From contig DATMNC010000011.1 in NCBI GenBank assembly GCA_035569395.1, forward strand, positions 67,560-131,559: a DNA stretch of 64,000 nt, in the 5' to 3' direction. The position numbers were made by a program, and so were the translations under genes. Positions 23,404-25,656 of the stretch are shown here, piece after piece (the first letter of the stretch is position 1; every line of letters begins with the position of its first letter). A model generated the notes under the pieces. The model was not told the DNA's origin. It was given only the letters and a program-made list of their open reading frames with translations, and did no database searches. The stretch comes from Thermoanaerobaculia bacterium (GTDB lineage Bacteria > Acidobacteriota > Thermoanaerobaculia > Gp7-AA8).

Positions 23404-25656
23404 TGCGTGATCGTGATTCTTCTCCTCGGCATCATCGTCCCCGCCGCGCTTCTGGTCGCCGCCGTGCGCCGCTGGATCGCTCCTGTGCCGTGGCGCGCGG
23501 CGCTGCTGCTCCTGTTGTTGACGCTGGGATTCCTGCACGAGGCGGTCTTCACCACGAAGCTGCCGGTGCCGGTCGATGAAGCGGCGCGCGGCTATCCGTG
23601 GCACGGCGTCGTCGGTGACGTCGACGCGCGTAATCCGCTGACGAACGATACCGTCAAGCTGTTTCTCCCGTGGATGCAGGTAGCGCGCGAAGAGCTGGCA
23701 CATGGGCGCACGCCACTGTGGAACCGCTAATCGTTCGCCGGCTATCCGCTGCTGGCAAACGGCGAATCGGCTCCCTTCTCGCCGCTTTTTCTGGCCACGC
23801 TCTTCGTCCCGCTGCCGAAACAGATCGTGGCGATGGCAGCACTCAAGATCTTCGCGGCGCTTCTATTCACATGGCTGTTTCTGAAACGCGAGCAAGCCAG
23901 CGATGCCGCGGCAACGTTCGGTGCCGTCGTCTTCGCCTTCTCGACGGTAATGACGGTCTTTCTCTACTACTCGACCGCATCGGTCGTGGCCTTTCTTCCC
24001 GCGGCCGCCTTCGCACTGCTTCACGCGATGGACAAGCAGACGAAGGCCAGCATCGTCCTGGTGGCGATCACCATCGCCACGTTGCTTGCGAACGGCCATC
24101 CGGAGAGTGTGTTGCACATTGCGGTCGGATGCGGCGGGATCCTCGCGGTGGAATGGTTGCGGGGTCTCGGGGTTGCGCGGTCTCGCGGTACCAGTGAGGT
24201 CAAAACACCGCGAGACTCCGCAACCGCGAGACCGCGCAACCGCCTCATCGCACCGCTGATCGGCGTCGCGCTCGGCCTCGCCCTCGGTGCGCCGGCATGG
24301 GTCCCGGTGCTCGAGCAGGTCCGCATCAGCGAACGGTTCGCGACGTTGCGTGCGATGACTCATCCCGGACCGTTGCCGCTCACCGCGGCGTGGGGCATCA
24401 TCAGTCCGAACGGCTTCGGCAACCCGCTCCGCCACAACTGGTCGTGGATGTACAACTACACGAGCGTGGCCATCTCGTACGCAGGCCTGCTGCCGCTGGC
24501 GCTCTTTCTAGCCGCCGCGATCTCCCGCCGGACCGCCACACGCGAGCGACTGCTCATCGTCCTATGCGCGATCTTCTTTCTCGTAGCGATGGACTGGAGC
24601 ATCGCCGGACACGCGCTCAACGCCCTCCCGCCGTTCAACATCGTGGCGAATGACAAGCTGCGCTTTGTCTGCATCTTCCTGCTGGCAGTGGTCACGGCGA
24701 AATGGTTGGACGCGCAGGCGGACGACTCCGCAAACATCTGGATTGCATCGTTCGTCGTCATCTCCGTCGCGCTCTACGTCTATACCGTCCGCTTCAATCT
24801 CATGCACCCGATCGATCTCCTCGGCATCGCCGCGATCGGCATCTTCCTGTTCCTTCCGAAACGATTCCGGGCATGGGGCGCGGCCGCTCTTGCATGTGCG
24901 GAGCTCTTCGCCTTCAACGCCGGATTCAACGCCCTCGTCGATGCAAGATACTTTCGCCCGCCGCTGCCGATCGTCGACGCATTGCGCGTGCACGCGCCGC
25001 ACGAGCCCTTCCGCGTGGCGGATCTGAACTGGACCTTCCTGCCGAACGCTTCCGCACAGTACGGACTCGACGACGTACGCGGCAGCGACCCGATGGCATT
25101 CGCCGACTACGATCGGTTCCTGCAACGCTTCACGATCGCGGAGAGCGGCTCGTGGGTGCGCCGCATCATCGATGCGAACCGGCCCGAGCTCGACTTCCTC
25201 AACGTCCGCTTCCTCATCGCTGAACCGGATGGAGTGCCCGGCGGACGCTGGCACCTCATCTACAGCGGTTCCGACGGAACACTCTGGGAGAACCCCGCTT
25301 CCCTCCCGCGATTCTTCGCGCGCGCGGCGAACGTCCGCAATCTCCGGAGCACCGCGCCGGCAGAATTTACGATGACCGTCGTTTCATCCGCACCAACACT
25401 GGTCGAATCGAGCGAGCCGCTCGGACCCGGGCGGCGCGTCTACGTCAACGGTCACCGAGTTTCGCTACACCACCTCGACGACGCGTTCATCGGCTTCGAG
25501 GTACCGGCGGGAGTGTCTGATGTGCGCGTCGTCTATCGCCCGGTCAGCTTCTACCTTTCGTGCGTGATCGCGCTGCTGGCGATGATCGTTATGGCGGTTG
25601 TTCCTTCGACAAGGGCCTTCTACCGATCCACCCACCCCATCGCTCGTTCGTTGTAG
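23404..25656 (+). pseudogene. polytopic membrane protein (YfhO-like) disrupted by an in-frame TAA (23728-23730) and carrying an in-frame family-1 repeat insertion
   Basis: Track ORFs 23314..23730 and 23827..25656 are in the same frame. The intervening codons encode SFAGYPLLANGESAPFSPLFLATLFVPLPKQIV, which is protein-like and hydrophobic, so one ancestral ORF is split by a single TAA. Residues LRGLGVARSRGTSEVKTPRDSATARPRNRL are the literal translation of repeat copy 24152-24243. The YfhO assignment rests on the multi-TM N-terminal region + soluble C-terminal domain architecture and is tentative. Confidence 0.45.
24152..24243. repeat. palindromic repeat element, family 1, copy c (inside coding sequence, in frame, no stop codons)
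   Basis: The sequence is gttgcggggtctcggggttgcgcggtctcgcggtaccagtgaggtcaaaacaccgcgagactccgcaaccgcgagaccgcgcaaccgcc. Confidence 0.8.

Follow-up and report, generated by a model that had tools for sequence, protein, structure and literature searches.

A dispersed hairpin repeat read in frame, and a separate stop codon, in a yfhO gene of uncultured soil Thermoanaerobaculia

The 64-kb stretch of DNA analysed here (hereafter, the window) belongs to an uncultured soil bacterium of the Thermoanaerobaculia (Acidobacteriota) and contains, at 23407..25656, a single gene for a membrane glycosyltransferase of the YfhO family with a GT-C fold. Two features of this yfhO gene concern us: a 90-nt hairpin (24154-24243) from a dispersed repeat family, whose in-frame translation is WLRGLGVARSRGTSEVKTPRDSATARPRNR, and an internal TAA stop codon further upstream (23728-23730). 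Frame 1 of 23404..25656 translates into a continuous, hydrophobic, protein-like sequence that is broken by this one internal stop (...TPLWNR*SFAGYPLL...) before it ends at TAG 25654-25656, and the open reading frames (ORFs) 23314..23730 and 23827..25656 lie in a common reading frame. The parts of the gene are as follows:

23407..23730, plus strand: 5′ part of yfhO, 107 codons, starting with GTG 23407 and cut short by the TAA
23728..23730, plus strand: nonsense codon, TAA for the near-invariant Tyr108
23731..25656, plus strand: rest of the yfhO frame, 641 codons and TAG; first possible restarts GTG 23827 and ATG 23833
24154..24189, plus strand: left arm, composed of four 8-nt units (TGGTTGCG G GGTCTCG G GGTTGCG C GGTCTCG C GGT), encoding WLRGLGVARSRG
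24190..24206, plus strand: hairpin loop of 17 nt (ACCAGTGAGGTCAAAAC), encoding TSEVK and part of the next codon
24207..24243, plus strand: right arm (ACCGCGAGACTCCGCAACCGCGAGACCGCGCAACCGC), reverse-complement units, encoding the PRDSATARPRNR part

What kind of protein does this gene specify? Matched against Pfam, the joined protein scores 40.6 bits with YfhO (PF09586; gathering cut-off 28.5, E = 1.5e-10), the best stretch being C-terminal only, which bears out the family assignment made earlier from the letters and their open reading frames (the sequence-only reading). The 5′ part (23407..23730) aligns position by position with the N-terminal ends of intact homologs of 710-760 aa, and the product of 23731..25656 is ~90% identical, over its full length, to the orthologous proteins P0001 and P0002. 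A search of 5.8 billion proteins returned 362 homologs, those named all coming from Thermoanaerobaculia or Acidobacteriota metagenome-assembled genomes (MAGs), and the majority of orthologs have a precomputed PF09586 match. The AlphaFold2 (AF2) model of P0001, itself ~90% identical to the window protein (mean residue confidence, pLDDT, 85.4; pTM 0.90), predicts the architecture of GT-C enzymes, that is, a multi-helix membrane domain joined to an extracytoplasmic C-terminal domain. Its top PDB matches in Foldseek were AftD, EmbB, PglB, and STT3 (E 1e-4 to 1e-3, probability 0.95-1.0), at low TM-scores of 0.23-0.41. Many membrane helices, a beta-rich C-terminal domain, and a predicted fold like that of AftD, EmbB, and PglB are thus shared with the GT-C enzymes of the YfhO family. 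Unlike these, the window copy is cut by a stop codon, and one of its inter-helix loops is, as in the rest of its clade, longer by 17 residues derived from the repeat.

Relatives keep the gene order around this locus: a GT4 glycosyltransferase, a 74-aa ORF, yfhO, and a convergent aldo-keto reductase. Positions 21620-30597 of the window are 100% identical to a 124-kb contig in ENA (ERZ27253680:k141_144798), on which yfhO was called as two genes of 107 aa and 607 aa; exact-product look-ups of the 609-aa and 607-aa C-terminal ORFs gave no match, and it was the neighbouring aldo-keto reductase gene and the 107-aa fragment that led to the contig.

The genic element has the build of its family, whose arms consist of alternating 8-nt units, GGTTGCGS and GGTCTCGS. 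Its right arm proper spans 24207-24241, two further pairing bases extending it to 24243, and is 97% complementary to copy 4 of the repeat (inverted repeat I6) and 94% complementary to copy 2 (I8), both situated elsewhere in the window. As RNA, the element folds at -79.7 kcal/mol, compared to -47.1 +/- 3.3 for shuffled sequences (z = -9.9; 0/200 shuffles as stable), and its stem is a string of 7-bp helices with a single mismatch at every eighth position, as in copy 4. That a member of a palindromic family is read through in frame, and that a TAA interrupts protein-like flanks, was the core of the sequence-only reading; frame-1 translation, hairpin, and further copies agree on the former, and the translation likewise displays the latter. 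Since four of the six frames are open across the element, stop-free reading is unremarkable on its own. The arms appear unable to spell a stop codon in any frame, so that an element could be read through provided that its length is a multiple of three and its loop harmless. In the frame used by yfhO, the element encodes a hydrophilic, Arg-rich peptide.

Alignment with orthologs reveals a loop in two principal lengths. Between the motifs GHPESVLH and W.PVLEQ, more distant orthologs (42-60% identity) have 43 residues, whereas the window, L001, L002, and L013 (L numbers denote the loci compared) have 60. The loop segment itself measures 21 residues in all more distant orthologs, the ancestral state, versus 38 in the window's clade, and the short, Arg-rich loop of the former reads ...DLALSSDKRAWLRRFRVP.... 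The direction of change would accordingly be that of an insertion into the 21-residue form. Comparing the empty alleles L031 and L029 with the full allele L030, ~33 nt (ASDRRDWLRRF) are swapped for ~84 nt, a net gain of 51 nt or 17 codons. Of the insertion proposed in the sequence-only reading, the origin in a repeat therefore stands, but not a clean insertion. Element-bearing alleles keep the hairpin (-87 kcal/mol in L001, -76 in L013, and -62 in L002), while empty alleles reach no better than ~-20 kcal/mol.

These comparisons also separate the element from the stop codon in time. The palindromic segment is common to the window and to intact, ~90% identical orthologs (L001, L002, L128), in which it is still palindromic, and the stop is specific to the contig; the element is hence old and unrelated to the stop.

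The added residues map to a loop, a point that the sequence-only reading had put forward for checking. Counted from the alignment, the element-coded stretch corresponds to residues 250-279 of P0001. In the AF2 model, residues 251-280 are placed between the helices 232-259 and 281-293, with pLDDT averages of 63, 50, and 65 and values <50 at 266-273, which correspond to the hairpin loop. Alignment and model thus place the element in a predicted low-confidence loop between two membrane helices, with the part coded by the left arm looking, in the model, like an extension of the preceding helix (232-259). Following the positive-inside rule, the Arg-rich loop probably faces the cytoplasm; the inserted peptide is likewise Arg-rich. 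Separately, some orthologs (P0003, P0009, P0010, P0011, P0013, P0015; alignment A1, columns ~490-590) have, in another loop, ~60-90 additional residues that are unrelated to the element (HAGGVQEISRWQAPQARSHRI..PGRGAGE..ATPAGV..RWRRAFGACHRLIS); this second insertion looks like a translated copy of a different dispersed repeat and is not present in the window gene.

Across 72 orthologs, the loop occurs in several states: 21 residues (ancestral), 38-47 (full), 30-31, 23, and 17-18. P0002 is missing exactly eight left-arm residues; at the DNA level these are three units (24 nt), and slippage of an 8-nt repeat could not keep the frame with any smaller step. In L032 the right arm alone remains. A rough, single-gene neighbour-joining (NJ) tree mixes the two kinds of allele, full and empty, at six or more points. 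Do these reflect one arrival of the element or several? All yfhO copies have a short central loop of 6-7 residues that ends in [ET/ES/KT] before PRD, and the copy in L030 is already degenerate. Identity between the empty L029 and the full L030 amounts to 0.89-0.98 upstream of the loop and 0.83-0.93 in most downstream windows, versus 0.71-0.82 in the 200 nt around the loop, with one further dip to 0.75 in window 1301-1400. The very short loop shared with similar residues, the degenerate L030 copy, and the local drop in L029/L030 identity lead us to favour a single origin, probably followed by recombination.

We now turn to the stop codon. The codon at this position specifies Tyr in every one of the orthologous loci compared, all from GTDB species representatives (27/27; TAC in 22, TAT in 5), so that TAA is indeed a sense codon elsewhere, as had been put forward for checking; Tyr108 occurs in at least 90% of the aligned proteins. 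The closest relatives (TGGAACCGCTACTCGTTCGCC) differ from the window (TGGAACCGCTAATCGTTCGCC) by one C-to-A change (CGC TAC TCG to CGC TAA TCG). Downstream of Tyr108, the protein alignment has an invariant block (G112, P114, L115, L116, N118, E120, A122, P123, F124, S125, P126), and translation restarting at 23827 or 23833 would omit 32-34 residues, this block among them, rendering a functional two-polypeptide product unlikely. A promoter and terminator scan of 23300-24400 gave no sign of a restart or of an internal terminator at the element. With a sense codon in orthologs at the stop and conserved in-frame sequence beyond it, the locus has the marks of a nonsense pseudogene. Among the options left by the sequence-only reading, a recent pseudogene fits best, the two polypeptides are unlikely to be functional, and a sequencing error is less likely than had been allowed, the window matching an Illumina-type k141 contig with intact neighbouring genes.

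How recent would the inactivation be? Substitutions specific to the window lineage number 29 synonymous and 13 non-synonymous, which resembles lineages with intact copies (39/17 in L002, 51/9 in L001). This pattern suggests that inactivation is recent, or else that the stop is not real, and the TAA is likeliest to mark a recent pseudogene or a population null allele. Two relatives hold disruptions of their own. In L013, the closest relative (92.6% nucleotide identity; JADGNY010000003.1, L013:~4046), TA is replaced by GGC, a +1 frameshift at codon 349; in L028 (JBBRNB010000041.1), ~2 kb of yfhO are deleted, from directly after Tyr108 to the last ~40 nt. With the nonsense codon of the window, yfhO has been disrupted independently in three genomes, and the gene looks expendable in this group.

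The deletion junction in L028 (3324-3400) is occupied by a ~77-nt element of another family, resembling a miniature inverted-repeat transposable element (MITE), with terminal inverted repeats ATCCGCAGATTACG...CGTAATCTGCGGAT. That its breakpoint coincides with the TAA codon of the window may be coincidence. We rejected the TAA as an excision footprint of this element: allowing up to three mismatches (<=3), it has 0 matches in the window, and the TAA alters no length.

Together, these observations make it probable, in our judgement, that an old, tolerated in-frame element and an independent, recent nonsense change have come together in one yfhO gene. In the first event, a member of the dispersed hairpin repeat would have become coding sequence of yfhO, the ~33 nt for the short Arg-rich loop (...DRRDWLRRF...) being exchanged for ~84 nt and 17 codons being added between membrane helices with the frame kept. 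The protein would have tolerated its new loop, and a whole clade of intact orthologs would have inherited the segment. Some lineages would since have shortened it without loss of the frame, by 24 nt (three units) in one instance and to nothing but the right arm in another, and homologous recombination would have shuffled alleles with and without the element. In the second, recent event, a single C-to-A change would have turned the TAC codon of Tyr108 into TAA and cut the protein after 107 residues. As no restart would recover the invariant motif 3′ of the stop, this copy would be a young pseudogene or a null allele of the population. Both events are of known kinds.

Several points weigh against this history. 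The ancestral loop sequence was replaced and not simply interrupted, and target-site duplications are lacking (see below). Its patchy placement on the rough NJ tree conflicts with a single origin, and the argument for recombination is drawn from one sequence pair (L029/L030). As for the stop, the window represents an assembly consensus, and its base at 23730 may be an error or may come from a minority variant; the unrelaxed constraint in the window lineage would equally be expected of an intact gene; and the two contigs with the truncated product may go back to one assembly that was deposited twice.

The alternative that survives best, though we regard it as doubtful, treats the loop as a hot spot: elements would have entered it several times independently, or would have been assembled on the spot, another copy being transferred by template switching or gene conversion onto a resident sequence that already resembled a right arm, with no need for a single entry and inheritance. 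The interleaving of alleles on the gene tree is what such a process would produce. In line with it, the copy in L003 is built differently, with five left units and RRFRAP retained, and target-site duplications do not exceed the control. Moreover, the 33 nt of the ancestral loop (GATCGCCGCGACTGGCT.CGCC..TTC) can be loosely aligned to the right arm, and the net 51 nt equal left arm plus loop, but in this GC-rich, CGC-rich context the similarity may be due to chance. Also speaking against a hot spot, the 6-7-residue loop present in every yfhO copy is rare in the family (9/102 full copies have loops of <=17 nt), loop peptides such as GQLE[SK] are common to sub-clades, the L030 copy is degenerate and not fresh, and the identity drop between L029 and L030 at the loop points to an imported patch.

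Less probable still is that the TAA is an artefact of assembly or sequencing, or a minority variant, and that the gene is intact and yields a full-length protein including the element-coded loop. One base separates the window from its closest relatives at this point, the remaining frame is open for 641 codons, and the 29/13 counts of the window lineage are no different from those of intact relatives. However, the window corresponds to a k141 consensus contig on which all neighbouring genes are of ortholog length, a truncated product of 107 aa is on record for two contigs, and the separate disruptions in two relatives suggest a dispensable gene. Intact neighbours in a consensus assembly of short-read type, together with the truncated product on two contigs, make us favour a genuine stop over an error.

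Could the hairpin, in turn, be kept for its own sake? Five ~90% identical orthologs (window, L013, L002, L001, and L128) bear on this question. Variable sites make up 22% of the gene in this set. The left arm (24154-24189) is the only 36-nt window, out of ~2,160 in the gene, with zero variable sites, synonymous ones included, while 15/17 sites vary in the 17-nt loop, the gene's most variable stretch, and 9/38 in the right arm, near the gene average of 0.22. Since selection on the hairpin would constrain both arms, it does not explain this asymmetry; the left arm may owe its invariance to gene conversion, to a signal at the DNA level, or, the sample being small, to chance. A function of the genic hairpin in DNA or RNA, as a protein-binding site or as a pausing or processing signal in the mRNA, would accord with the invariant left arm and with the -62 to -87 kcal/mol retained in intact relatives. 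We consider it improbable nonetheless. The right arm varies at the average rate, mostly through changes that break pairs, which argues against selection on the structure as such; the element is trimmed or lost in other lineages; the left arm is degenerate in L030 and L004; and the comparison comprises five sequences only. Lastly, decoding of the TAA by readthrough, a suppressor tRNA, or reassignment to Tyr, with a full-length protein being made, would suit the Tyr that every ortholog has at this codon and the protein-like sequence in the same frame on both sides, but we deem it most improbable given that TAA ends several conserved window genes at exact ortholog length (among them the neighbouring GT4 gene at 22017..23186, of 389 aa, and the kinase gene at 27316..28200, of 294 aa, both with orthologs of equal length in L001), that the sole tRNA of the window is a tRNA-Asn and none within it is a suppressor, that TAC to TAA is the simplest possible nonsense change, and that Acidobacteriota are not known to reassign TAA.

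The repeat family from which the element stems has five copies in the window. Judged by the positions of long frames with high G+C content at third codon positions, the four besides the genic one are intergenic:

530..620, no strand assigned: copy 1, intergenic, ending where the next gene starts (ATG, 621); folds at -56.6 kcal/mol (z = -4.8)
13796..13939, no strand assigned: copy 2, intergenic, between two plus-strand genes, with a long interior
43220..43403, no strand assigned: copy 4, filling a convergent-gene spacer exactly, stop codon to stop codon; -140.4 kcal/mol, z = -15.8
54379..54552, no strand assigned: copy 5, intergenic, between divergent genes; z = -3.7

The metagenome stretch L132, identical (100%) to positions 13325-14692 of the window, spans copy 2. 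The interior of copy 4 (43256-43361) is a nested palindrome of other 8-nt units (TGCTTGGT/TGCTGAGT, ~8 copies, and their complement), bringing the whole structure to 190 nt, and a diverged copy 4 is present at the orthologous site in L089. The recurring peptide signature described in the sequence-only reading is real, appearing in several frames and copies, e.g. as TARPRNRETPQP at 13899-13934 in copy 2 and as TARPRNPETAQP at 43367-43402 in copy 4. A G-rich repeat lies at window 39898-39988 (CGGGTGTCGGGTGTCGGGGGTCGGGGGTCGG; related copies at 45357 and 47440), and L089 has a member of the family at the same site, from which we conclude that intergenic copies turn over.

An exact-pattern search of JGI metagenomes yielded at least 117 stretches (905 kb), and those listed contain at least 156 instances of the family, mostly intergenic, 102 of them with both arms. 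Arm-to-arm spacing varies from 8 to 289 nt across the family. Two instances, among the matches listed, are clearly genic and in frame, one in a yfhO ortholog (L128) and the other in menD (L040:4205-5917). The latter (L040:4868-4973, on the related metagenome contig Ga0247679_1000002) is read as EVAGSRGFEVSRQETDDAANHADTPRPRNRETPQP, residues 222-256, in a different frame than in yfhO, and sits in the linker after the N-terminal TPP domain; TIGR00173 identifies the gene as menD (E = 4.9e-84), and MenD proteins of known structure align with its product both before and after the element. Further candidates for genic insertions were rejected. L083, L092, L086, L040:3244, and L105 proved to be intergenic, just upstream of true start codons, and L102, L057, and L034 came without domain support.

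No excess of target-site duplications was found among 103 copies, 28 of which have direct end repeats of at least 4 nt compared to ~28.5 in shuffled pairings. No Rfam family matches the element, the only Rfam hit in the window being the tRNA. The arm sequences were not found in the searchable literature, and a 93-aa composite of three element reading frames, used in a protein search, gave 14 candidates and no hit. Apparently, the repeat family is undescribed.

Rickettsia palindromic elements (RPEs) are the obvious comparison. These palindromic repeats occur both between genes and in frame within unrelated genes, are inherited by orthologs, and decay with time (PMC10969869). The likeness, pointed out early on, is borne out by a dispersed palindrome residing in frame in conserved genes, at positions absent from orthologs (yfhO and menD), where it adds a peptide at a tolerated surface or loop position and is inherited before decaying. 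There are differences, too: the host phylum and, presumably, the sequence are unrelated; the arms are made of 8-nt tandem units, with a loop of 8-289 nt; in-frame genic copies are rare here (~2/156 listed instances, 1/5 in the window) versus nearly half in R. conorii; and the coded peptide changes with the reading frame between yfhO and menD. We treat the element as a probable analogue of RPEs rather than as a member.

Other families of small repeats resemble it in part. REP and REPIN sequences are GC-rich palindromes without target-site duplications that lie mostly between convergent or co-directional genes, often in contact with stop or start codons, and sometimes in ORFs (PMC3733652). The present family is likewise a GC-rich palindrome, lacks target-site duplications, and is mostly intergenic, often touching stop or start codons. 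In contrast to REPs, which are imperfect palindromes of 20-40 nt with such a tag at one end, it has no GTAG or CGTC tag, its copies starting with GGTTGCG-type and ending with CGCAACC-type units, and each arm is a 35-nt tandem array instead of a short palindrome. Genes for RAYT, the Y1 transposases that mobilise REP and REPIN elements, are usually single-copy, and a 64-kb window says little about them. With MITEs such as Correia, ERIC, and Nezha, the family has in common a small, non-coding body, inverted-repeat ends (35-nt arms), many copies, and the possibility of in-frame fusions. It departs from them in that target-site duplications are at control level, a parent insertion sequence is not known, and the yfhO insertion replaced resident sequence. 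A bolder proposal, to which we attach a low probability, is that the 8-nt-unit repeat is an undescribed Thermoanaerobaculia family that spreads without duplication, perhaps by templated conversion of arm-like sequences, and has been recruited repeatedly into loops and linkers (yfhO, menD), one arm in yfhO being invariant because it doubles as a DNA or RNA signal.

The window contains further repeats. Two tandem arrays with a 21-nt period are found at 29132-29259 and 2627-2731 (TTGCTTGGTTTCGACCCTCGC, ~5-6 copies; GCTCGGGTCCGGTCAACGACC, ~4-5 copies). Positions 38251-38376 and 37594-37724 hold an inverted repeat with 43-nt arms, 81% complementary and 40 nt apart, and a pair of 34-nt direct repeats with CCACGGACTAGTAGTCCGTGG palindromes beside the tRNA-Asn (37668-37743); both look like other repeat families. 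Short tandem motifs of the CCACTAATCCACTAATCCACT type recur in inverted orientation at two distant sites (14702-14736 and 59112-59146).

What do these findings mean for the biology of the group? The stop codon would be a case of ordinary gene loss, with nothing that bears on a long-standing question. For annotation, the repeat yields recurrent, spurious 'hypothetical proteins' (TARPRNRETPQP and similar) and, in MAGs of the group, causes called genes to be split or lengthened. In-frame palindromic repeats, best known from the RPEs of Rickettsia and from some REPs, would now extend to free-living, GC-rich soil Acidobacteriota. Here, a natural series of yfhO alleles, from empty and full to trimmed and reduced to the right arm, shows how such an insert may be tolerated by a protein and then eroded in frame.

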